A stretch of 55,193 nucleotides of DNA. Origin: a virus. The position numbers and the translations under genes are program-made. This document shows, in pieces, positions 6,071 to 55,193 of this stretch. A model generated the notes under the pieces. It saw nothing but the letters and a program-made list of their open reading frames with translations. It was not told where the DNA came from and ran no database searches. The stretch is taken from the IMG/VR virus record IMGVR_UViG_3300031454_000005, positions 1 through 55,193 of that record. One strand, given 5' to 3'. The stretch's first letter is position 1. Each line of letters opens with the position of its first letter.

Positions 6071-8616
6071 GCACTCCTGATCCTGGGGCAATCCGGGGAC
6101 TGGCGACCGGTCTGTGGGCCAGCCTGACGCGGGACGTCAAGGCGACCATCGACCGCCTGACGGACGTCCGCCGGGTGCAGGCGATCGAGGAAGACGGCCG
6201 GGTCACGATCGCGTCGACCAACCCCGACGCCCCGGCTCCCATGACGGTGTCGCGGTTGCGGGGTTCGACGTTCGCGCCGGGCGACGACGTGGTCACGATG
6301 CGGGTCGCCGGCTACGACGTCGCGATCGGAACGCTGGCGACGGCGGCTGACATGGTGGACAACGGTCAGGGCAATGGACCGGGTGGCACGCCCAACCAGA
6401 GCATCGATGTCTATGGACCGGGGCTGGGTCTGATCACTAGCAACCCGGCCGTAATGGATTTCAAGAACGGGTTCGCGCTCAGCGAACCCGTCCCGGACGT
6501 GGTCAGGCTCGACCTCGCCTACGGTGGGAACGGCACGGCGACGACCGTAGCGCGAAGCGATCACACCCACGTCGCGACATGGGATGTCCTGATCGTCATC
6601 CCCTACAGCATCCGCTATCAGGGCACCGTCCGGGCGATGACGACCAAGGAACGGTCGATGTGCGAGACCGTCGCCCGCCAGTTCTCCGGCCTCTATTCGA
6701 TGGCCTCCGGTGGCCTGATGGATGTGCGGGCGCGGGGCGTGTTCCGCGAAACGACCTGGGATCTGGATGCCGACCTCGCCGCGATCGGGAGCGGCTTGCC
6801 GGGGTTCGGCACGGGCGTCTGGATCGACGCCCAGCACGGCCAGCGGTTCCTCGATACCTACAACGGCCGGACCTACGACGCCCAGGTCATCATGGTCGGC
6901 AAGGCGCAGATCGACTCGACCGCCGACGGGCTCACCACGGGCGGCACGCCGGGCTGGTGTTTCCTCAACATCGGGGACGGCAACTACGACTTCTACGCCG
7001 GCCAGAACCGGCTTGCGGACGTGCTGGTCCATGAGATGAACCACCAGGTCGAATCGCGGATGCAGAACCTCGGCCTGGCGATCTCGCCGGTCGATGGATC
7101 GATACCCGGCACCACTGGCGCAGCGGCAATCAACAACGAGCCGCACCACAACTGGTTCTCCGGCTATATCGCCTGGTGGGACTACAACGACTTCTCCGGG
7201 CTGACCGACGACGGCCACGGCCCGACCGTCCACGCCGACACCCTGACGCTGCCCGACATCTACGTCGACCCGGACAACGGCTGGGGTGTGTTCACCACCG
7301 GAGGAACCGGCGACTACAACCAGAGCATCGACGTGTTCGGTACCGGCGTCGGCCAGATCACGTCCAACCTTGCCTATATCGACGTCAAGGACGGCCTGCT
7401 GGCGACGGAGCCGACCGTCGATGGTGTCCGGCTCGACGTGGACTTCACCGCGTCCGGCGGCTCCAACGGCACGACAACCAAGGTGGCGCGAGGCGATCAC
7501 ACACACGCGGCGGCGGACATCGCCTCTGGCATCATCGTCCCCGCCCGGCTCGGCATTGGCACCGCCTCGGCCACGACAACCCTGTATGGCGATGGGACGT
7601 GGAAGACGGCGCCGACCGGCGGAACGAGCACGACGTGGAACGGCGGCGATGTCACGGCGGCGACCCACTATCGCAACGTCGCGGTCGACGGGGACGACAG
7701 CGCGAGCGTCCGGCGCTGGGCGATGTATTCATCGGGGACGTTCGAGTCGTACGACGCCAACGGCTTTGTCCGCGCCAGCCTCGGGAACGGGTCGCTTTCG
7801 CTCTACGATTCGCTCGGCACGCAGACCGTCTACCTCCCCACGACGGGCAACCCGAGCGTTCCGCCCCGCTTCGCCGTGACCCCCACCGTGGGCGCGTCGG
7901 GCAGCGCGGTGAACGTCAGTCTCACGGGGCACACACACGTCAAGGGCGATGTCGGGCTCGGCAACGTCGATAACACGTCGGACGCGAGCAAGCCGGTCAG
8001 CACACCAACGCAGACCGCGCTCGACGCCAAGGCACCGCTCGCGTCGCCGGCCTTCACCGGAACGCCAACGGGTATCACCAAGGCGCACGTCGGGCTCGGC
8101 AACGTGGACAACACCGCCGACACAGCCAAGCCCATATCAACGGCGACGCAGGCCGCGCTCGACAGCAAGAGCAGCACCGCTCACACGGTCTCCCGGCCGA
8201 CCTCGAACTTCACCACGACGGCGACCGGCACCGTCGTCCCCACGGCCACCCTCGGTATCACGGTGGGGGCCAACGAGGTCTGGGAGTTCGTCATCGACCT
8301 GTTCACTGGATGCAGCGGGACCGGCGGGACCAAATGGGGCATCTACTGCACCCAGGCGGCGACGCTGCGCGGCAGCGCGATCGGCATGGCGGCGATCCCG
8401 ACCGCTGTCACCTCGGCATCCCTGACCACGAACGCCGGGCTGAGCGGCGTCGCGTTCAACACCGCCGCTCGCCAGGACGGGTGGGTCCGCATCGCCGGGA
8501 TCATCGCCAACGGGGCAACGGCGGGAACCTTCTACCCGGTCTGGGGAGCTGGCGTCGCGGGCGAAACCAGCACCCTGTACACCAACAGCCTGATCGTCGC
8601 CCATCGCATTGGGTAG
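6067..8616 (+). CDS. Tail fibre / receptor-binding protein with an embedded HExxH metallopeptidase-like segment
   Basis: ATGA overlap with the upstream gene; 849 aa. Contains two copies of the phage-fibre motif GLGNVDNT.D..KP.S...Q.AL..K (7951-8031 and 8089-8169). Contains two copies of NQSIDV.G.G.G.ITSN...G(G)NGT.TT.AR.DHTH (6394-6570 and 7318-7506). HEMNH is at 7030-7044. Confidence 0.8.
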   Translation: MSTPDPGAIRGLATGLWASLTRDVKATIDRLTDVRRVQAIEEDGRVTIASTNPDAPAPMTVSRLRGSTFAPGDDVVTMRVAGYDVAIGTLATAADMVDNGQGNGPGGTPNQSIDVYGPGLGLITSNPAVMDFKNGFALSEPVPDVVRLDLAYGGNGTATTVARSDHTHVATWDVLIVIPYSIRYQGTVRAMTTKERSMCETVARQFSGLYSMASGGLMDVRARGVFRETTWDLDADLAAIGSGLPGFGTGVWIDAQHGQRFLDTYNGRTYDAQVIMVGKAQIDSTADGLTTGGTPGWCFLNIGDGNYDFYAGQNRLADVLVHEMNHQVESRMQNLGLAISPVDGSIPGTTGAAAINNEPHHNWFSGYIAWWDYNDFSGLTDDGHGPTVHADTLTLPDIYVDPDNGWGVFTTGGTGDYNQSIDVFGTGVGQITSNLAYIDVKDGLLATEPTVDGVRLDVDFTASGGSNGTTTKVARGDHTHAAADIASGIIVPARLGIGTASATTTLYGDGTWKTAPTGGTSTTWNGGDVTAATHYRNVAVDGDDSASVRRWAMYSSGTFESYDANGFVRASLGNGSLSLYDSLGTQTVYLPTTGNPSVPPRFAVTPTVGASGSAVNVSLTGHTHVKGDVGLGNVDNTSDASKPVSTPTQTALDAKAPLASPAFTGTPTGITKAHVGLGNVDNTADTAKPISTATQAALDSKSSTAHTVSRPTSNFTTTATGTVVPTATLGITVGANEVWEFVIDLFTGCSGTGGTKWGIYCTQAATLRGSAIGMAAIPTAVTSASLTTNAGLSGVAFNTAARQDGWVRIAGIIANGATAGTFYPVWGAGVAGETSTLYTNSLIVAHRIG

Positions 8617-15855: not shown

Positions 15856-17043
15856 TCATGTTGTCGTACTTCCCGCCGCCCCGAACAGCCGATCACCGAG
15901 GTCGTCGGCGGCGCGGCGGTGGTCGTCCCGCGAGGTGTGGCTGTAGAGATCGAGGGTGATCTGGACGGAGCGGTGGCCCAGCCGCTCGGAGACCAGCTTG
16001 ACGTTCGTCCCGGCCCGAACTTCCAGGGTGGCATTCGTGTGCCTGAGCTGGTGTAACGTGATCGGGGTGACGCCGGTGGTCTCGATCAGACCGGCGTGAA
16101 CGCGCTGCCAGGTCGTGCGGGCGAGGAAGCGCCCGTCGCCGCGGTCGAAGACCATGCCGTCGTCGTGCCAGACGGCCGAGGCCAGGCGGCGGCGCTTCTG
16201 CTCGGTCGACCAGGCACGCAGGGCCGCGACGGCGGACGCGGGGATGGCGTTCTCCCGTTCCCGGCCGGTCTTGGTGGACTCGCCCATCACGACATGGCCG
16301 GCCAGGTCCTTCGTGAGAGAGCGCTGGACCGTGATGATGCCGGCATCGAGATCGACGTCGGCCCACTGGATGGCGCAGAGCTCACCCGGCCGCATCCCGG
16401 TCGAGAGCGCGACCCGGTAGAAGGCGTCCCACATGGGCTCGCCGGCCAGCGTCACGATGACCCGCTGGACCTCGGCGACGGACCAGGTCGGGATCTTCTT
16501 CTTCCGGGCGATGGGGTAGCGCAGCCCGACGGCCGGGTTGACCGGGATGATGCCGAGCCGGGCGGCCTCGGCCAGCGCGGCGGTCAGGACGCGGCCGCTG
16601 TTCTCGATCGTGTTGGGGCCGTACTTGCGCCGCCGGGCGTCGTCGATCCAGTGCTGGATCCGCCCCGTCGTCAGACCCTCGATCCGGAGCGTGCCGAGGT
16701 CGGGGTAGATCAGGCGCTCGGCCCGTTGGCGGTAGGCGGCGTGGGTGGCCGGCTTCCAGCGGCCCTCGCCGCGGTCGAGGTAGTCGCCGACGGCGTCCTT
16801 CACCGTCATGTTGGAGGGCGGGACGTAGCGGCCGTGGCGCTTCTTACGAGCGACGTCGCGCAAATGGTCCTCGGCGGCGTCCTGGTCGGGAAAGGACTTC
16901 GAGCGCCAGATCGTATGCCCGGTGTCCTGCGGCTCCGGCCAGCGGGCCCGGACCCGTTCGGTCCCATCGGTCAGCTGGTAGCTGAGCACGTAGCCGTCCC
17001 CGTAGCGGACGCCCTCGCGCCGGCGTGGTTCTCGACGTGCCAT
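15856..17043 (-). CDS. int: Tyrosine integrase (site-specific recombinase, phage integrase family)
   Basis: 395 aa. C-terminal HQLRHTNATL ... LGHRSVQITLDLYSH matches the R-H-R-Y catalytic region. The N-terminus has a SAM-like/arm-binding style region. Confidence 0.9.
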   Translation of the reverse strand: MARREPRRREGVRYGDGYVLSYQLTDGTERVRARWPEPQDTGHTIWRSKSFPDQDAAEDHLRDVARKKRHGRYVPPSNMTVKDAVGDYLDRGEGRWKPATHAAYRQRAERLIYPDLGTLRIEGLTTGRIQHWIDDARRRKYGPNTIENSGRVLTAALAEAARLGIIPVNPAVGLRYPIARKKKIPTWSVAEVQRVIVTLAGEPMWDAFYRVALSTGMRPGELCAIQWADVDLDAGIITVQRSLTKDLAGHVVMGESTKTGRERENAIPASAVAALRAWSTEQKRRRLASAVWHDDGMVFDRGDGRFLARTTWQRVHAGLIETTGVTPITLHQLRHTNATLEVRAGTNVKLVSERLGHRSVQITLDLYSHTSRDDHRRAADDLGDRLFGAAGSTTT

Positions 17044-17261
17044 CAGTCGTCCCGCTCCCGGGATGGCCGCACGGGCCGCGGCGAGACCGGGACCACCAGC
17101 CCGACCGAACCGTCGCCACTGGCCGGGGAACGACGGTCGAGCAGCGCCCCGATCAGCGTGATCGCCACGTCGAGGTCGCCGTCGTCGAGCTGCTGAATCA
17201 GGTTCTCGAGGTGGGTGAACTTGTCGCGGGCGTGGTTGAACGTCAGGACGGTGTCGGTCAT
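17043..17261 (-). CDS. Hypothetical protein translationally coupled to int
   Basis: Its stop overlaps the int ATG by 1 nt (TGATG); 72 aa. No recognised Xis-type HTH. Confidence 0.5.
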   Translation of the reverse strand: MTDTVLTFNHARDKFTHLENLIQQLDDGDLDVAITLIGALLDRRSPASGDGSVGLVVPVSPRPVRPSRERDD

Positions 17262-17398
17262 ACCAATTCCTTCAGAATGATCAGGCTCTCGACGAGCGAC
17301 GAGCCGTTGACCATCAGCGTGACGATCAGGCAGATTAGGACGCAGGCGGCGAGGAGGACGATCAGCTCAACGGCTTGCCAGAGACGGAGCTCGATCAT
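17258..17398 (-). CDS. 46-aa single-TM micro-protein
   Basis: MIELRLWQAVELIVLLAACVLICLIVTLMVNG... ATGA overlaps at both ends (17398/17395 and 17261/17258). Below the length cut-off of the ORF track. Confidence 0.45.
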   Translation of the reverse strand: MIELRLWQAVELIVLLAACVLICLIVTLMVNGSSLVESLIILKELV

Positions 17399-17883
17399 GG
17401 GCTTCCTTCCGGTGTCTCTGCGACGGATGTGTTCGGCGGGCGAGTGAGATCGAGGGCGTATTGCACGACTTCCACTGCCTGGGGTCTGGACATCTGCTTC
17501 ATCAGATTCGACACGTTGGTTACCTGATCCTTATGTGGGTGGTGAAATCGAGGCTCCACGAACTTGAGACCGTTGAGACGGATCATCTTGGGGTCAGGCT
17601 GGCGACTGGCGCCCAGAGTCTTCTTGTCAGGCAAAACCCACTTTCGAACCCTGACAATCGTCACGTTGTTGGCATCGACGTAGCGCGACATCTGATGGGT
17701 CGATCCAGCGGGAACGGCGAGGTTGCCGTCATATCCGGCGAACCCGACTGTCACTGGCTCAATCGTTTCGGTAACTTCCCTGAGGTGACCTGCTTGCAGC
17801 GCTTCACTAAAGCCCCCATTATTGAAGAGGTCCTGACGGTCCGGGTCGCACATCCGGATTCGTCGTTCAGGAGTACTAGTCAT
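17395..17883 (-). CDS. Hypothetical protein (162 aa), no recognisable motif
   Basis: ATG at 17883 is preceded by GAGGA (4-nt spacer). Visibly lower G+C than the genome. ATGA coupling to the downstream micro-protein. Confidence 0.55.
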   Translation of the reverse strand: MTSTPERRIRMCDPDRQDLFNNGGFSEALQAGHLREVTETIEPVTVGFAGYDGNLAVPAGSTHQMSRYVDANNVTIVRVRKWVLPDKKTLGASRQPDPKMIRLNGLKFVEPRFHHPHKDQVTNVSNLMKQMSRPQAVEVVQYALDLTRPPNTSVAETPEGSP

Positions 17884-18322
17884 GCCGTCCTCGCTTGAGC
17901 AAAGCATTCGAATACAGTTGGCGCAGGCGATTCAATCGCAGGAACTGAGCGATCAGTTCTACGATTGGCTAAGCGATATCGCCTCAGATCTTCCCATTGG
18001 CGAAGACTCCGATGCGATGGACTTGGCAGACCGCGCCTTATTGGCTGTCTACTCATATCGTGATGGGTATATCGGGGTAGACGCCCTCTGGGCGCACCTC
18101 GATTCGCTTCTAGTCATTGCGCAGCCTTCATCCTCGTCGGCCTTCAATCTCGTCCGCCTCTCCGTCGAGATGGCTGAACAAGTTGGGTGGCAGGTCTCGG
18201 TCGCAGCCCACGTCGTCACCCCACCAAGGGAGATTCATTCATTGGTGGTGGACTCGTTTCCGTCTCGAGTTCCGATGCTGACGGGTCAGGATCTCCCTGG
18301 GGTGGCTGTTCGTCACTACTGA
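17882..18322 (+). CDS. Hypothetical acidic helical protein (146 aa) encoded antisense between two minus-strand genes
   Basis: ATG at 17882 with AGGAG (17869-17873) 8 nt upstream. It fills the 333-nt gap between the minus-strand ORFs. It overlaps the start codon of 17395..17883(-) and 107 nt of the 3' end of 18216..18854(-). Confidence 0.5.
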   Translation: MPSSLEQSIRIQLAQAIQSQELSDQFYDWLSDIASDLPIGEDSDAMDLADRALLAVYSYRDGYIGVDALWAHLDSLLVIAQPSSSSAFNLVRLSVEMAEQVGWQVSVAAHVVTPPREIHSLVVDSFPSRVPMLTGQDLPGVAVRHY

Positions 18323-18854
18323 TATAGGCGAGTGTTTGGTCGAGGAAAAATGGAACCCGGCCGGCATAGCGGTCGTCGATATAGAGCTCGAACCAGAGCA
18401 ACCCAGCCGAACTTTTGCTCGTGATACTCAAATCGATGTTGAAGGTCGCGCCACGGATCGCCATCGGGTCAGCGGCTTCTGGGCCCAAGTCAAATACATG
18501 GCGAGAGACCGGGGCGCGGGCAACGCCCGGGTGATTCAGCACGATGCCGAGAACATGCCGTTCAGCACTCCATATTCCCCGCACGATGATGTACAGGGTG
18601 TAGTGAGCTCCGGGTAAGGGCGGGCCATCCTCGGGGTACCGGGCGGCTTCCAGATCCGAGAGCGGAAAGGGAATGGAATAGGTGACATCCGCCCGATCTA
18701 CGATGCGGACAGCAGTTACAACGCCATCAGCCTCTCTCAGGACCTTCTCGCAGATGAAGGCTGCGGTCAGTTCGGGGCCGCCCATCGGCGGCGGGTCTTC
18801 GGGTACCCATCCATCGACTGGGAGCTGGTCGGGTTCCTGCAATGGTTTGCTCAT
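18216..18854 (-). CDS. Hypothetical protein (212 aa), beta-rich core with Pro/acidic termini
   Basis: ATG at 18854 is preceded by GAGGAGGAG. The core pattern (AAFICEKVLREADGVVTAVRIVD ... HYTLYIIVRG ... LLWFELYIDDRYAGRVPFFL) recalls an uncharacterised actinobacterial DUF. I cannot verify the family. Confidence 0.6.
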   Translation of the reverse strand: MSKPLQEPDQLPVDGWVPEDPPPMGGPELTAAFICEKVLREADGVVTAVRIVDRADVTYSIPFPLSDLEAARYPEDGPPLPGAHYTLYIIVRGIWSAERHVLGIVLNHPGVARAPVSRHVFDLGPEAADPMAIRGATFNIDLSITSKSSAGLLWFELYIDDRYAGRVPFFLDQTLAYISSDEQPPQGDPDPSASELETETSPPPMNESPLVG

Positions 18855-18938
18855 CGCTCACTCCTCCTCGAACCGGGCACCGCAGGCGTTGCAGAAGGGG
18901 GCGGCGGTCATGGATGGATGCCCCTGAAGGATGACAAC

Positions 18939-18962
18939 GGGCCGCCCGACGTTGGGCGGCCC
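18939..18962 (-). terminator. Hairpin terminator candidate downstream of the LPXTG gene
   Basis: GGGCCGCCC gacgtt GGGCGGCCC, a perfect 9-bp stem, 24 nt beyond the stop at 18986. Confidence 0.5.
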
Positions 18963-18985
18963 GCCGATCCGATGTGCCGTGAACG

Positions 18986-19549
18986 TCAGGCGCGGCGACC
19001 ACGGATCAGGCTGATGCCACCGGTGCCGATCGAGGCCACGGCGAACAGGGCCAGCAGGATCGTCGTCATGGTGATCGAGGTCGCGGCGGTGCTCCCACTC
19101 CCCGTGCTCGGCAGCGTCGTCGCGGTCGTGGCGCTGGTCGCGGTCGTCGTGGTTGCGGCGCCGGTGCTGGTCGTCGTGCCGCCGGTCTCCTCAACCACCG
19201 GCGCGGTCTCGACTGGCTCCTCGACGACCGGGGCAGTCTCGACCGGTGCTTCCGATGGAGACTCGACGACGGGAGGGGTAACGCCGAAATAGCTCTCGAA
19301 GGTCACGGTGCCGCCGGGGCCGACGCCGCCCTGGCAGGCGATGCCGTCATCTCCGGGATTATTTCCAGGGCGACCATCAAGGCCGTTGGGGTCACTCAGA
19401 TCGGCATCGAGAATCCGCTGTGCATCATCCTGCGTCGCGATGTCTCCGCAGTTGAGGACATCCTGTGCCGACGCCGGCGATGGCGTGACCGCGAACAGAC
19501 CGAGGGCGAGGGTGACGACCAGTGACGCGGCGATGACGAATCGGTGCAT
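18986..19549 (-). CDS. Secreted LPXTG cell-wall-anchored surface protein with an Excalibur-like Ca-binding-type domain
   Basis: ATG at 19549 after AAGGAG. Signal peptide MHRFVIAASLVVTLALGLFAVTPSPASA. Domain NCGDIATQDDAQRIL...DPNGLDGRPGNNPGDDGIACQ. Repeats APVETAPVVEEPVETAPVVEE. A Thr-rich stalk, then LPSTG, a hydrophobic helix and an RGRRA tail. Confidence 0.75.
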   Translation of the reverse strand: MHRFVIAASLVVTLALGLFAVTPSPASAQDVLNCGDIATQDDAQRILDADLSDPNGLDGRPGNNPGDDGIACQGGVGPGGTVTFESYFGVTPPVVESPSEAPVETAPVVEEPVETAPVVEETGGTTTSTGAATTTTATSATTATTLPSTGSGSTAATSITMTTILLALFAVASIGTGGISLIRGRRA

Positions 19550-19641
19550 GCTGGACTCCTTGTGAGGCTCTTCGGGGGTTAGTGATGTCTTGTGGGACGA
19601 CGATGGCGGGCCACGACTGCGGGTCATAGCGCGTCTCACCG

Positions 19642-20316
19642 TCAAGCCTGATGGGCATCAAGAACGGACCGGAGTTCTCGCACACCGTTGGCGAGGGCGT
19701 CCGATCGAACGACGGGGATGGCATACGACGCTTTGGCGGGGCCGTCAGCGTCGGTGCTCCAATAGCTTGTATCGGTTCCCTTGCTTGCTGGGGTTTGCAG
19801 GATCACAGCGCCAGTTACCCGCCCGAGCTCCACTTGCACGCCATAGACCGCACGATAGTCCCAAGTCACGACCTTGGCGCCACCCGCCGCGCCCGCCATA
19901 AATCCCGGTTTATATATGTAGATGCGCTTGTTCGTCGCAACGATCTCTTGCCCGTGGACCCCAGGGACGACGGCCTCGGCGACCTCTCCATCCACAGCTT
20001 CATCCGTAATTCCGTCCAAGGCTTGCTGTGTCAAACCGTTCCCGGCAACCTGGCTCCACATCGTTACCAGCCTTGCCGACCGTCGGCGCTGAACGTCTTC
20101 CTGTCGAGCAAGACCTAACGTTGTTTGCTCGGTCACTCGATTATGGTCTTCAACCGTCTTGCGCAGGCTTAGCCCATCTATCAACCACCAGACGCCAACA
20201 CCTCCTACCGTGCAGGTCATCATCAAGCCAGTCGCCCACTTCCCAAGGTAATAGCGGTGACCTCCGAGGAGGCCGGTCAACAGCCAGATGACATAGGCCG
20301 TTTTTGTTGACTTCAT
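19642..20316 (-). CDS. TM2-domain membrane protein with a C-terminal bacterial PH-like domain
   Basis: ATG at 20316 after GAGGAAG. YVIWLLTGLLGGHRYYLGKWATGLMMTCTVGGVGVWWLIDG matches the TM2 two-helix motif (G.HRFYLG). The C-terminal IVATNKRIYIYKPG...VVTWDYRAVYGVQVELGRVTGAVILQT resembles a YokE-type bPH domain. Confidence 0.7.
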   Translation of the reverse strand: MKSTKTAYVIWLLTGLLGGHRYYLGKWATGLMMTCTVGGVGVWWLIDGLSLRKTVEDHNRVTEQTTLGLARQEDVQRRRSARLVTMWSQVAGNGLTQQALDGITDEAVDGEVAEAVVPGVHGQEIVATNKRIYIYKPGFMAGAAGGAKVVTWDYRAVYGVQVELGRVTGAVILQTPASKGTDTSYWSTDADGPAKASYAIPVVRSDALANGVRELRSVLDAHQA

Positions 20317-20453: not shown

Positions 20454-20675
20454 ATGTCGGTCGAAGGTGCAAGGTACGAGGTCGCTATCACCATCCATGA
20501 CTACCAGACCAGCCAGCAGGTTTCCCGCCTGCTGACGATCTACCTGACGGGCGATCACGCCCGGATCGTTTGCCCCGACGATGATGCCCTTGATGGGTAC
20601 CAGCTCGATCATTCGAAGCTCTCCGGGTTGCTCTTGGCCCTGTTGGGCTGCGACCGAACCCGCAGCGTCAACTGA
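20454..20675 (+). CDS. Hypothetical 73-aa protein
   Basis: ATG at 20454 after GGGGAGGG. Convergent with the repressor gene, overlapping its 3' end by 67 nt. Confidence 0.45.
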   Translation: MSVEGARYEVAITIHDYQTSQQVSRLLTIYLTGDHARIVCPDDDALDGYQLDHSKLSGLLLALLGCDRTRSVN

Positions 20676-21034
20676 GCGATAGACTGAAACGCCGCGATGG
20701 TGACTGCATCGTGCACCGGATCAAGTACGGCCAGCAGCGATGCAATCTCGCGGACGGTCTCATCACGATCGAACCGGAACAACATCGTTCCCTCTTCACT
20801 CGCGTCAACCTCCTCCTCAGTCAACTCGCCGGCAGCAATCAACAGGTCAACGTGACGCACCCCGAGAGCTTCGGCCAGACGCCGTCTGACGCCGGCCTCC
20901 GGGAGCTTCGTGACCCCGCGCTCAATCCGGTTCACCGTCGTCGCAGGGACCTCCGATCGAATGGCCAGGTCCTTCTGCGACCAGCCTAGTCCCTCTCGCC
21001 TCCGCTCAATGTAGGTTCCCAACGTCTCTGTCAT
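20609..21034 (-). CDS. CI-like prophage repressor (XRE HTH)
   Basis: LGTYIERRREGLGWSQKDLAIRSEVPATTVNRIERG is a Cro/C1 HTH. Divergent from a Cro-like gene. ATG at 21034 sits 7 nt downstream of a TACAGT -10 box, which suggests a leaderless mRNA. The longer 21163 start would run through the rightward promoter. Confidence 0.75.
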   Translation of the reverse strand: MTETLGTYIERRREGLGWSQKDLAIRSEVPATTVNRIERGVTKLPEAGVRRRLAEALGVRHVDLLIAAGELTEEEVDASEEGTMLFRFDRDETVREIASLLAVLDPVHDAVTIAAFQSIAQLTLRVRSQPNRAKSNPESFE

Positions 21035-21041
21035 AGCGGTC

Positions 21042-21117
21042 ACTGTAACGGTATACGTAAGTCTTGACAGTACATTACACATCCTGTATTCTATGTTCAC
21101 GACATCTGCAATCTGCA
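21042..21117. promoter_or_regulatory. Immunity switch region: rightward early promoter, leftward leaderless repressor promoter, and repeats
   Basis: Rightward: TTGACA (21064-21069), 17 nt, TATTCT (21087-21092). Leftward: CTGTCA (21070-21065), 17 nt, TACAGT (21047-21042), then 7 nt to the ATG. The two -35 boxes overlap on opposite strands. Tandem ATCTGCA ATCTGCA at 21104-21117. Confidence 0.6.
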
Positions 21118-21141
21118 AGTCGATAGAGGGGAGGCAATCAA

Positions 21142-21339
21142 ATGGGTCACGTAAGTCCGGCACCGCGAAAGGTCGTTCAGACAGTTTCGCTGCGGCAGGA
21201 CCAGCGCGAAGCGGTGATCCGGCTTGTCCATGAGGACCTCAAGCACGGCAACCTCTCCCGGTACATCCAGGACCTGATCGACGCCGACCTCGCCGAACGG
21301 GCGAAGCAGGCTGTCGATCCCCAGGCGGTGGCCTCATGA
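21142..21339 (+). CDS. Cro-like early regulator, ribbon-helix-helix type
   Basis: GAGGGGAGG RBS; 65 aa. VVQTVSLRQDQREAVIRLVHE...NLSRYIQDLIDADL fits a beta-strand/helix/helix (CopG/Arc) pattern. First gene of the rightward operon. Confidence 0.55.
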   Translation: MGHVSPAPRKVVQTVSLRQDQREAVIRLVHEDLKHGNLSRYIQDLIDADLAERAKQAVDPQAVAS

Positions 21340-21590
21340 CCGACGCGATCCGGCCGGCGCTGACCGTCGGGGACATCCAGCAGCGCCTCGGGGTCGGGCG
21401 CAACACCGCCCTCGACCTGATGCGGGACGGCGCGCTGGCGGAGATCACGGTCCGCGACGGTCGCCGGTGGAGCATCCCGGCCGACTCCTTCGACGCCTGG
21501 TGCGTGGAGCGCGGCCGCCTGGCTGCCCAGCGAACGCACCGGCAGGGGACCGCCCCGGCACCGACGTTCATCCATCGCAAGACCGCCTGA
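21336..21590 (+). CDS. Excisionase-like / MerR-type HTH DNA-binding protein
   Basis: ATGA overlap with the upstream gene. LTVGDIQQRLGVGRNTALDLMRDGAL...RWSIPADSFDAW matches the Xis/HTH_17 pattern. Confidence 0.6.
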   Translation: MTDAIRPALTVGDIQQRLGVGRNTALDLMRDGALAEITVRDGRRWSIPADSFDAWCVERGRLAAQRTHRQGTAPAPTFIHRKTA

Positions 21591-22198: not shown

Positions 22199-22732
22199 AT
22201 GTCGAACGTAGCCAGCATCCAACTTGACTCGGGAGCCGTGGTCATCCTCAACGAAGAAGACCTCGGCCTGATGGAAGGCTCCCGATGGCGAGTGATGAAG
22301 CCCTACAACACCGCCTATGCGGTCGTCAGGAAGGGTGAGCGCACGATCTTGATGCATCGCCTGATTACTGGGGTGGTCGATCCAGCTATTCACGTTGATC
22401 ACCTCAACGGAGACGGGTTGGATAACAGACGGGCGAACTTGCGCATCAGTACGTGCGCTGAGAACGCTCGGAACCGCGGGTTGAACCGAAACAACACGAC
22501 TGGCTTCAAGGGCGTTAGCCGCACGTCTCATGGGTGGTGTGCGGTGATCGGCCTGAATCGCAGGAGCAAACATCTCGGAACCTTTGACGCACCGGAAAAG
22601 GCAGCTCGCGCATACGACGTAGCGGCCCGAGCACTTCACGGCGAGTTCGCGTTCCTCAACTTCCCCGACGCGGCGTGCGACCTCATCGACCGGACGGTGG
22701 CGCCGGAGCCGGACCAGACGCCGGAGTTCTGA
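22199..22732 (+). CDS. HNH endonuclease with an AP2 DNA-binding domain
   Basis: VDHLNGDGLDNRRANLR...ENARN (HNH_3) followed by FKGVS...W.A.I......HLGTFDAPEKAARAYDVAARALHGEFAFLNFP (AP2/ERF-like). Confidence 0.8.
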   Translation: MSNVASIQLDSGAVVILNEEDLGLMEGSRWRVMKPYNTAYAVVRKGERTILMHRLITGVVDPAIHVDHLNGDGLDNRRANLRISTCAENARNRGLNRNNTTGFKGVSRTSHGWCAVIGLNRRSKHLGTFDAPEKAARAYDVAARALHGEFAFLNFPDAACDLIDRTVAPEPDQTPEF

Positions 22733-52718: not shown

Positions 52719-55193
52719 ATGAGTGACGGAGCTTTAGGGGGCGCCAAAGCCACCATCAGCCTCGACGCCAAGGGGGCGATCGCTGCACTAAAAGAGTTCG
52801 GCAGCGCCGCCGACCAGACGATGCGGTCGGTCGGGCAATCGGGCACCCAGGCGGCCGGTGGCTTTGCATCGTTCGAGAAGACACTCAGCAGCAGTAACGT
52901 CCAGGCGGCTGGCGGTGCCCTGGCCGGGATCGGTGCCGCCGTCGGGCTGATCGGCGGCTTCGCGATCAACAGCGCCATGCAGTTCGATCAGGGCATGGCC
53001 AATGTCCGGGCGGCGACCGGCGCGACGGGGGTCGAGTTCGACAGCCTCCGCAACCTCGCGCTCCAGATCGGCAAGGACACCAGCTTCAGCGCGAACGAGG
53101 CCACCCTCGCGATCGAGGAGCTGGCCAAGGCGGGCACGTCCACGACGGACATCCTCGGCGGTGCGGCCGAGGCCACGACGGCCCTCGCGGCTGCTGGCGG
53201 CGTGGACCTCCCGACCGCCGCGACGGTGATGTCGGCCGCACTCAACCAGTTCGGGCTCGCGGCCGGGGATGCGTCCGGGTACGTCGACGACATGGGGCAG
53301 AGCGTCAACAACGCCGCCCACGTCGCGGACGTGATCTCGGCCGCCGCGACGGCCTCCGCCACCGGCGTGACCGAGATGGGATCGTCGCTGTCGTACGTCG
53401 GGACCAGCGCGGCCGCTCTCGGCGTCCCCCTCGAGGACACGGCGACCGCGATCGCCCTCATGGCCAACCAGGGCATCGTCGGCTCGTCCGCGGGCACATC
53501 CCTCAACCAGGTCCTGCTCTCGCTCGCGAACCCGACGGCCAAGGCGGCGGGGGTGATGGGTGAGCTTGGCCTGTCCTTCACTGACCTGAACGGCAACATG
53601 CTGCCGCTGCCGGACATCATCGGCTCCGTGGCCACGGCCACCGAGGGGATGGGCACGGCCCAGCGTGCCGCCACGCTCGAAACGCTGTTCGGGGTCGAGG
53701 GCGGCCGGGCGATGAATGCCCTGTTGCCGTCCATGTCCGCCGAAGTGCAGGGCACGGCTGACTCCTGGGACGGCATGAACGCGTCCGTGACGCAGGTCGG
53801 CGCCGCCCAGGAGCAGGCTCAGGCCCGTCTCAACAGCACGTCCGGCCGGCTGGAGGCGATGAAGGGGTCGCTGGAGACCGTCGGAATCGTCATCGGCTCA
53901 AAGCTGCTCCCCGCCTTCGACGCCATCATCCTCGGCGCGACGAGCCTCCTTAACACCTTCCTGAACCTGCCCTCCGGCATCCAGACCGTCATCGCCGCCG
54001 TGGTTGGGGTGGCGGGTGCGTTCGCCGGGATCGCGGGCGCCGCCATCCTGATTGGTCCGCGGCTGATCCAGGTGGCCCAGGGGTTCCGCGTCATCTCCAT
54101 CGCCATGCGGGCGATGGTCGTCGGCAACCCGATCCTGCTGGCGATCGCGGCGGCCATCGGTCTCGTGCTGCTTGCGGTCGCCGCCTACAAGACCAACTTC
54201 CTCGGTTTCGGCGACGCGGTCCGGGCAGTCGGGAGCAAGATCAAGGACCTGCTCGCCCCATTCGGCCGACTCATCAACCTGTTCCAGAACTTCCGCACCT
54301 TCGGCATGAATCCGGTGCAGGCGGCGCTCCAGGCGCTCAAGGTCGCTTTTCCCGCGCTCGGCGGAGTCATCACCTCGATCCAGAACAAGGTCTCCCAGGT
54401 CACGGACATGTTCCATAACCTGACCGCCTTCGGCATGGACCCCGTCAAGGCGGCGGTGACGGCGCTCTCCGCGGCGTTCCCGCGACTCGGAGAGACGTTC
54501 GCACTGGTCGGATCGTTCATCGGCAACCTGGTCAGCATGTTCCAGAACCTCTGGGATGGTATCCAGCGCCTCGTCAGCGGTGATTTCTCCGGGGCATTCG
54601 ACGCGTTCAAGGCCGCTGGTCTTGACGCAATCCAGGTGATCTGGGACGGCATCCGAGTCCTGCCGACGTTGCTGCTCAACCTCCTGACCGGCATGAATTG
54701 GTCGGATATCGGCTCTAAGATCACGGACACTATCCGATCGGCCTTCGATGGGCTGCGATCCGGTGCAGGTGACCTGTGGTCCTGGCTCACCGACGGGATT
54801 CGGTCGGCGCTCCAGTCCATTTCCAGCGGCATCTTCGACTGGCTCAACAACACGAGTGCATCCATCACCAGTGGGCTGAGCGCCGCCTGGGACGCCATCA
54901 CCTCGCTGACATGGGATGACTTCATCCCGGACGTCGCCTGGGATGTCTTCATCGGAGCCATCAATCTCGCCACCAAGGTCGGCGACTTCTTGTGGGACAC
55001 ATTTGTGACGGCAGTTGACCTTGCCGTCAAGGTCGGTGCGTTTGCCTGGAGCGCATTCGTCACCGCCGTCGATCTCGCCAAGCGCGTCGGCGCCTTCGCG
55101 TGGTCCACATTCGTAACTGCAGTGGACCTCGCCGCCAAGGTCGGCGCCTTCGCGTGGTCCACATTCGTAACTGCAGTGGACCTCGCCGCCAAG
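52719..55193 (+). CDS. Tail tape measure protein, N-terminal 825 aa (continues at nt 47 after the 46-nt overlap)
   Basis: ATG at 52719. AMQFDQGMANVRAATGATGVEFDSLRNLALQIGKDTSFSANEATLAIEELAKAG matches the TP901-type TMP core. There is no stop before the window end, which is why the ORF is absent from the track. The frame is continuous with 2..2359. Confidence 0.85.
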   Translation, partial: MSDGALGGAKATISLDAKGAIAALKEFGSAADQTMRSVGQSGTQAAGGFASFEKTLSSSNVQAAGGALAGIGAAVGLIGGFAINSAMQFDQGMANVRAATGATGVEFDSLRNLALQIGKDTSFSANEATLAIEELAKAGTSTTDILGGAAEATTALAAAGGVDLPTAATVMSAALNQFGLAAGDASGYVDDMGQSVNNAAHVADVISAAATASATGVTEMGSSLSYVGTSAAALGVPLEDTATAIALMANQGIVGSSAGTSLNQVLLSLANPTAKAAGVMGELGLSFTDLNGNMLPLPDIIGSVATATEGMGTAQRAATLETLFGVEGGRAMNALLPSMSAEVQGTADSWDGMNASVTQVGAAQEQAQARLNSTSGRLEAMKGSLETVGIVIGSKLLPAFDAIILGATSLLNTFLNLPSGIQTVIAAVVGVAGAFAGIAGAAILIGPRLIQVAQGFRVISIAMRAMVVGNPILLAIAAAIGLVLLAVAAYKTNFLGFGDAVRAVGSKIKDLLAPFGRLINLFQNFRTFGMNPVQAALQALKVAFPALGGVITSIQNKVSQVTDMFHNLTAFGMDPVKAAVTALSAAFPRLGETFALVGSFIGNLVSMFQNLWDGIQRLVSGDFSGAFDAFKAAGLDAIQVIWDGIRVLPTLLLNLLTGMNWSDIGSKITDTIRSAFDGLRSGAGDLWSWLTDGIRSALQSISSGIFDWLNNTSASITSGLSAAWDAITSLTWDDFIPDVAWDVFIGAINLATKVGDFLWDTFVTAVDLAVKVGAFAWSAFVTAVDLAKRVGAFAWSTFVTAVDLAAKVGAFAWSTFVTAVDLAAK
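54901..55193 (+). repeat. 54-nt tandem coding repeats of the TMP, including two identical terminal units
   Basis: 55094-55139 equals 55148-55193 equals 1-46. The unit encodes VGAFAWSTFVTAVDLAAK. Confidence 0.9.

Follow-up and report, generated by a model that had tools for sequence, protein, structure and literature searches.

A conserved and putatively mobile gene triad with overlapping start codons in the integrase-repressor interval of an apparent temperate phage

The switches of phages P2 and 186 work from face-to-face promoters, and type I toxin-antitoxin systems of Bacillus prophages, such as txpA/RatA and bsrG/SR4, have overlapping transcripts. In the Listeria excludon, long antisense RNAs couple divergent genes (PMC3377988). 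The central integrase-repressor region of temperate actinobacteriophages is presented, in a passage of PMC10700106 that cites Dedrick 2017, as a known site of lysogen-expressed defence genes. Here, we analyze three overlapping genes, A, B, and C, in the integrase-repressor interval of a 55,193-nt stretch of viral DNA (IMG/VR virus record IMGVR_UViG_3300031454_000005, positions 1 to 55,193; hereafter the window), which looks like the genome of a temperate phage. The triad, in the order C→ ←B A→, appears to be a conserved, horizontally mobile three-gene accessory module, carried in this temperate phage between integrase and repressor. Its features are as follows:

17395-17883, - strand: gene A, 162 residues; conserved core at residues 1-108 (17560-17883) and a window-specific C-terminal extension (17398-17559)
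17882-18322, + strand: gene B, 146 residues; helical conserved N-domain at residues 1-85 (17882-18136) and a variable tail, predicted to be disordered (18137-18319)
18216-18854, - strand: gene C, 212 residues; core at residues ~23-172 (18339-18788), unconserved low-complexity tail at 173-212, and a strong GGAGGAG Shine-Dalgarno sequence upstream
17881-17884, both strands: CATG palindrome, with the A ATG on the - strand at 17883-17881 and the B ATG on the + strand at 17882-17884
17869-17873, + strand: Shine-Dalgarno sequence of B, AGGAG, 8 nt upstream of the B ATG and within A codons 4-5
17888-17892, - strand: Shine-Dalgarno sequence of A, GAGGA (complement of 17888-17892), 4 nt upstream of the A ATG and within B codons 3-4
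18216-18322, both strands: convergent B/C overlap of 107 nt, encoding the variable C-terminal tails of both proteins

A preliminary description of this DNA had picked out the three open reading frames (ORFs) with these strands and coordinates, the flanking integrase and repressor-like gene, the shared CATG, the AGGAG of B, and the placement of each ribosome-binding site inside the other gene, all of which hold in the sequence. The lower-G+C block that it placed here is also present, with a G+C content of about 0.60-0.61 at 17-19 kb vs ~0.65-0.70 over most of the window. The triad resembles the excludon and the P2 and 186 switches in having divergent genes whose predicted antisense transcript overlap would let one side suppress the other, the C-side transcript being at once antisense to B and messenger RNA (mRNA) for A. 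It differs in that the start codons themselves overlap, with 17882-17883 in common, and in that each ribosome-binding site lies inside the partner, an arrangement more extreme than those described. Like type I toxin-antitoxin systems, the triad is borne on a prophage-type element and would be regulated by complementary opposite-strand RNAs, and its 3' overlap of ~100 nt in the window is similar in size. In contrast to those systems, however, the antisense partner B is a conserved protein under purifying selection rather than a small or non-coding RNA, A is a soluble protein of ~100-160 residues rather than a short hydrophobic peptide, and the 3' overlap is not conserved between loci. Type II toxin-antitoxin systems differ further, since A and B are divergent with overlapping starts and B and C are convergent, rather than forming a co-directional operon, and neither A nor B, nor their family profiles, had a known toxin, antitoxin, or DNA-binding domain in Pfam, NCBIfam, PADLOC, or PDB sequences. 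With the prophage-defence loci of actinobacteriophages, as that passage presents them, the triad shares its genomic position, a lower G+C content than its flanks, and mosaic exchange with neighbouring cassettes; it differs from them in having no sequence relationship to any described system.

The triad was found in nine independent loci (the window, L083, L084, L088, L089/90, L093/94, L099, L100, and L101; contig L085 ends inside B and is outside this count). These loci range in G+C content from 47 to 67%, three of them are IMG/VR viral contigs, and one is a chromosomal site at 47% G+C. Such recurrence places the arrangement far beyond chance, and hidden Markov models (HMMs) of the A and B families matched none of 80 unrelated control loci. 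A, B, and C are real protein-coding genes that travel together. Thus the three genes proposed as a unit in the preliminary description do co-occur elsewhere, and the start-to-start overlap is conserved with them. The CATG overlap of the A and B starts is present in six loci (the window, L083, L084, L093, L099, and L100), while in L101 the two starts overlap by 8 nt, and in L089 and L088 they are separated by gaps of 14 nt and ~19 nt, respectively. GGAGG-type sites equivalent to the AGGAG of B are found in L084, L089, and L093. In the window, L084, L089, and L093, the first codons of A, B, or both contain the Shine-Dalgarno site of the partner, and in the window and L084 this is true of both genes. 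The head-to-head A/B junction is conserved, and its retention in lineages with only ~30-40% protein identity argues for selection on the arrangement itself.

Gene A has the highest mean identity over seven loci (38.6%, compared to 32% for C and 26% for the B N-domain). Its homologue in L084 (35% identity; expect value, E = 1e-19) lies head-to-head with B, as do all matches of the A family HMM in L089, L093, L099, L100, and L101 (E = 1e-16 to 1e-41), and contigs L083 and L088 each end within an A homologue, of which only the first residues are seen. The conserved core of ~100 residues is neutral to basic, and A is soluble, without a long hydrophobic stretch. In the public annotation, A starts at 17853 and has 152 residues; besides the ATG at 17883, in-frame ATGs occur at 17907 and at this annotated position. 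The residues ahead of Met11 are kept in homologues (MTSTPERRIRMC... vs MSSPPEPKVLLC...), and this conservation of the first 10 residues, together with the GAGGA site, indicates that the true start of A is 17883 and not the annotated 17853. Gene callers probably avoided an overlap with B when placing the start there.

Several intrinsic properties of B are those of a coding sequence. Across the 332-nt gap between A and C (17884-18215), the B frame is the sole open one of six, the other five having 2-6 stops, and the G+C content of the B stretch by codon position (.65/.40/.65) has a three-base periodicity. Its codon-usage score (+0.04 to +0.06 per codon) falls at the 91st-92nd percentile of spurious ORFs, with A at +0.06 to +0.10 and the C core at +0.10; because G+C contents at first and third codon positions are about equal in the low-G+C block, codon usage alone could not settle the status of B. 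An AlphaFold2 model built with no alignment has four helices, with predicted local distance difference test scores of 70-87 for residues 1-80 and <45 for residues 102-146. The isoelectric point of B is 4.32, and that of the N-domain across the family is 4.1-5.3, in agreement with the earlier statement that B is acidic and helical.

Comparative evidence was decisive. B homologues occupy the equivalent position in nine other loci (L083, L084, L085, L088, L089, L093, L099, L100, and L101), and were found at protein identities where the DNA is no longer alignable. The homologue in L083, a 1.2-kb contig, is a 149-residue ORF (37% identity over residues 1-87) that is convergent and overlapping with P0004, the closest family member of C (42% identity), and the homologue in L084 has 41% identity (E = 3e-16). 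Between L083 and L084, the ratio of nonsynonymous to synonymous substitution rates (dN/dS) of the B N-domain is 0.24 at a dS of ~1, which points to purifying selection. A variant within the 90%-identity cluster of B carries 9 substitutions that fall within residues 93-144, leaving residues 1-92 unchanged; the near-identical contigs L001 and L002 held no informative substitutions within A-B-C. Together, the intrinsic and comparative evidence indicates that B is a genuine gene, encoding an acidic helical domain of ~85 residues with a free-running tail. The preliminary description had allowed that B might be an antisense shadow; its positional homologues, dN/dS, and tail-only substitutions are instead those of a conserved coding gene. 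As single proteins or as family profiles, neither A nor B had a match in Pfam, NCBIfam, PADLOC, PHROG, or PDB, and they represent two families without described relatives.

The B/C overlap, reported earlier as 107 nt, is present in the window at that length but is not conserved. Across ten loci it measures 107, 113, 4, 23, 38, 44, 4, 89, and 32 nt, with an 8-nt gap in L089, and it involves unconserved tails only. Both tails are negative in the codon model and unconserved in family alignments, and the tail-to-tail overlap is not a conserved feature of the module. A structured RNA or terminator within the overlap was considered and dropped (fold z-scores of -0.8 and +0.1).

The third protein, C, could be placed in a family. 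A phmmer search with C against 1.84 billion representatives gave 260 matches at E ≤ 1e-3, aligned to C residues ~23-172, and 56 of 61 aligned sequences (C and 60 homologues) match PF22091, with a best E of 5.2e-15. Against a profile of 57 members built without C and its three closest relatives, C scored 111.7 bits over HMM positions 5-152 of 156, a score to be read in light of those members having been picked as matches to C. C also keeps the near-invariant family positions R50, D53, G151, W154, and P168 (C numbering) and an N-terminal GP..AA..CE..L.E.DG motif. These results place C, as a divergent member, in the functionally uncharacterized Pfam family DUF6941 (PF22091), with which it aligns over the full domain of ~150 residues. 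It differs from other members in its N- and C-terminal low-complexity extensions and in falling, by itself, below a reportable Pfam score; C alone had no Pfam match even at E ≤ 0.1, and lay below the Pfam gathering threshold for PF22091. The earlier statement that none of the three proteins carries a nameable motif therefore stands for A and B but not for C. A literature search returned no paper mentioning DUF6941 or PF22091, so that membership gives C no function. PADLOC had no match for C or any of the 61 aligned DUF6941-type sequences, and PHROG matched one of the 61, marginally (E = 0.008).

C is preceded by a space of 131 nt (18855-18985), which contains the following element:

18858-18911, - strand: mini-ORF MTAAPFCNACGARFEEE, 17 residues with a CxxC; its stop lies within the Shine-Dalgarno region of C, and its DNA core is kept in L083 and L084

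Its counterparts, MTAAPYCAICGAVFE... in L083 (87-~167) and VTAAPYCAICGAAFEGDDQYC... in L084 (~374-466), likewise have a stop in or near the C ribosome-binding site, and the copy in L001 is degenerate. The mini-ORF may encode a coupled leader peptide, may be what is left of a zinc ribbon, or may act as a DNA/RNA site. Over 44 nt of its region, L083 and L084 share 95% DNA identity, whereas their C proteins are only 31% identical; the B N-domains of this close pair are 69% identical. This contrast, in which the B N-domain and the 44-nt element are conserved and C has diverged, suggests exchange of C alleles between conserved flanks. The variant cluster of the window phage gives consistent but indirect support for C as a variable sensor.

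DUF6941-like genes were also seen in other settings. The IMG/VR contig L101 has a second, more divergent DUF6941-like ORF directly past A (6380-6970, + strand; E = 3.8e-11 vs the family profile), so that the module can hold two copies of the domain. A second architecture occurs in L091 (2142-3064, - strand) and L098 (766-1742, - strand), in which a convergent operon encoding a 187-residue protein and then a protein of 120-138 residues replaces B and A. The 187-residue proteins are 36% identical to each other and gave only a weak GNAT-like hint (E = 0.06). An integrase is nearby in L098, and an OLD/AriA-type ATPase lies ~1.1 kb beyond the two-gene cassette in L091.

In the window, the triad is bordered by the following genes:

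15856-17043, - strand: integrase (Pfam Phage_integrase)
17043-17261, - strand: x72, a 72-residue ORF between TM46 and the integrase gene, joined to both by stop-start overlaps
17258-17398, - strand: TM46, a 46-residue hydrophobic ORF whose ATG overlaps the A stop (ATGA) and whose stop overlaps the next start
20609-21163, - strand: helix-turn-helix (HTH) repressor-like gene (Pfam HTH_31/HTH_3)

ATGA overlaps at 17395-17398 and 17258-17261 join A, TM46, x72, and int, with A first, into a chain that is predicted to be translationally coupled. TM46 has a codon score of +0.24 to +0.34 per codon and is not present after A in L084, L089, or L093, the loci with sequence downstream of A; it is context only and outside the conserved triad. 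TM46 was considered as a type I toxin of the module, and was rejected because it is not conserved in these three loci. Neither TM46 nor x72 had a family match; x72 occupies the place expected of an excisionase, yet has no HTH_17 match, and a separate HTH_17 gene is found at ~21336-21590 (+ strand). To the left of the integrase is a gene for an N-acetylmuramoyl-L-alanine amidase, likely the endolysin. Past the repressor lie a divergent cro-like HTH gene, with which the repressor forms a pair at 20.6-22.2 kb, and genes for a helicase, a methylase, and a portal protein. A homing-endonuclease-like protein with HNH_3 and AP2 domains is encoded in the early region, directly past the cro-like gene (22199-22732, + strand).

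Directly upstream of C, a gene at 18986-19645 (- strand) encodes a 219-residue protein with a signal-peptide-like N-terminus, a repetitive Pro/Val/Glu- and Thr-rich region, and an LPSTG motif (residue 178), after which come a hydrophobic segment and RGRRA. These are the hallmarks of a classical sortase-anchored surface protein, here encoded in the lysogeny region, and imply a Gram-positive host. The window begins and ends with the same 46 nt (1-46 and 55148-55193), as a complete, circular phage genome could. Both ends fall inside a repeat-rich ORF with ...AFAWSTFVTAVDLAAKVG... units, probably that of the tape-measure protein, and the identity may therefore be a repeat artefact.

A second phage contig, L001 (Logan SRR22405809), contains the block at 15896-18873 without any change but has a different neighbouring immunity cassette. 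The window segment 18904-21327, a cassette of secreted-protein, TM2, and repressor genes, is swapped for L001 3181-5959, with 99.4-99.5% identity on both sides; the difference between the two phages is a clean swap of the immunity region. The L001 cassette encodes a 170-residue membrane protein with a C-terminal double CxxC zinc ribbon, a 295-residue cupredoxin-like protein, and an M78 peptidase-like gene, among others.

Other searches returned little. The best relative of the integrase among 185,579 GTDB species representatives reached no more than 28% identity where the alignment was of any substantial length, A, B, and C were absent from the surroundings of these relatives, and the DNA at 15.8-21.2 kb was not shared with any phage or plasmid record. 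With an integrase and DNA lacking close relatives, the phage comes from a lineage that has been sampled very poorly, and the orphan status of its genes alone means little. Neither A, B, and C nor the L089, L093, and P0030 homologues had a match by tblastn and blastn in 50,697 phage and 72,556 plasmid records. Word-indexed homology searches with A, B, and C gave self-matches only, with no B homologue among 5.8 billion proteins. No match came from single-protein IMG/VR scans with the triad proteins or from JGI metagenome scans with B and C alignments, and PDB sequence searches with single proteins and family profiles gave nothing significant.

How the triad might be expressed can be proposed from its layout. 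C and A are on the same strand and can share a transcript, which would start in the space upstream of C, cover the whole of B in antisense, and in this phage extend over TM46, x72, and int. B would be read from a promoter inside A. The leader of B would then be complementary to the ribosome-binding site and start codon of A, and the leader of A likewise to those of B, so that expression of A and B is predicted to be mutually exclusive, through transcriptional interference and RNA duplexes, as in an excludon-like toggle with face-to-face promoters. With no intergenic DNA between A and B, transcript overlap would be forced if both are expressed, and reciprocal regulation at the RNA level is what we infer from this geometry. 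The preliminary description had held that no space is left for promoters and that every gene must be transcribed antisense through a partner. The first point applies to A and B but not to C, which can have its own promoter in the 131 nt upstream, and for the same reason the second need not be true of C. With respect to the proteins, the effector would be A, which is the best conserved of the three, with acidic B as its antagonist or regulator and C, which seems to be swapped between similar flanks in the closest pair of loci, as a specificity or sensing component.

From its distribution and neighbours, we put the probability that the triad is a mobile conflict module, serving defence or addiction, at roughly one half. 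An integrase adjoins the module in the window and in L084, three of its loci are viral contigs, and its block is unchanged in L001 beside a different immunity cassette, all of which speak for mobility. In L084, PDC-M19B (E = 4e-52) and PDC-M19A/DUF488 (E = 7.5e-35) lie directly past the triad, followed by the integrase on the same strand, and in L089, PDC-M50A (E = 1e-27) and a ThsB-like TIR protein (E = 5.5e-12) lie directly ahead of it. These PADLOC candidates, PDC-M19 and PDC-M50 (with the ThsB-like TIR protein), are direct neighbours of the triad and not its homologues. They give indirect support to the earlier placement of the triad in a prophage defence hotspot. The fuller proposal, of an undescribed anti-phage defence or addiction system built around DUF6941 and the antisense-embedded B, in which A and B mRNAs mask each other's ribosome-binding sites, is tentative. 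We treat the toxin/immunity or abortive-infection label as a hypothesis, and the earlier interpretation of the triad is partly supported.

Several observations weigh against a conflict module of this design. The defence association is indirect and based on two loci, L084 and L089, and the L093 triad has housekeeping genes as its neighbours. No toxin, antitoxin, nuclease, DNA-binding, or defence model matched A, B, or C. Structural comparison, which the preliminary description had suggested and which was run on the A and B models, was equally empty: Foldseek found nothing below E 0.2 with a low-confidence A model against PDB or with the B model against PDB and BFVD. A and B cannot be co-transcribed, unlike classical toxin-antitoxin pairs. 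In distant pairs of loci, C is not more divergent than B, so that its role as a variable sensor rests on one close pair, and a sigma-70 consensus scan found no promoter-like site within 17-19 kb, leaving the transcription map wholly inferred. Resemblances of B to barstar and of A to a barnase- or RelE-like RNase were considered and dropped, as no search supported either.

It is possible, instead, that the triad is an accessory ('moron') module unrelated to defence or addiction, involved for example in host physiology or modulation of the cell envelope, with its tight packing reflecting genome compaction and having a modest regulatory effect. The lack of homology between the triad proteins and any defence or toxin family would fit this explanation, as would the housekeeping neighbours in L093 and the surface and membrane proteins (the LPSTG-anchored protein and the TM2 protein) that share the interval in the window. 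Retention of the start overlap at ~30-40% protein identity, however, argues for a selected arrangement, and a patchy distribution over 47-67% G+C, with adjacency to integrases and to PDC-M19 and PDC-M50, is typical of conflict systems.

Less probably, A and B could form a bistable switch with face-to-face promoters, of the P2 C/Cox or 186 cI/Apl type, that controls the integrase operon and hence integration and excision. Divergent genes without intergenic space require face-to-face promoters, like those of the P2 and 186 switches; A heads the apparently coupled A-TM46-x72-int chain in the window, and the integrase of L084 is downstream on the same strand. Yet searches of A and B detected no HTH, ribbon-helix-helix, or other DNA-binding domain, the window already has its repressor and cro-like pair, and no integrase is among the genes called in the flanking sequence retrieved for L089 and L093. 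A switch of this kind would also leave the always-linked DUF6941 gene without a role. Lastly, a spurious B ORF, with the 332 nt between A and C serving as a non-coding spacer or regulatory RNA, would suit the modest codon score and the empty word-indexed search but is effectively refuted by the positional homologues and dN/dS of B, its confident N-domain prediction, and the confinement of a close variant's substitutions to the tail.

The triad is a genuine, conserved module with an unusual architecture. Should it serve defence or addiction, bacterial immunity would gain a new family of three genes, and DUF6941, of which metagenomes contain at least 260 clusters at 50% sequence identity, a first functional handle. 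The module would also be a natural, evolutionarily conserved case of two coding genes with ribosome-binding sites inside each other's first codons, and, should the A and B mRNAs of such a system mask each other's sites, its regulatory architecture would be a new one among immune modules. The A/B arrangement makes the long-discussed idea of an obligate antisense-overlap toggle directly testable, since point mutations could part RNA from protein effects. Whatever the function of the triad, the start of A is mis-annotated and B is a real gene despite its orphan look, and both results are useful for annotating a poorly sampled phage lineage.

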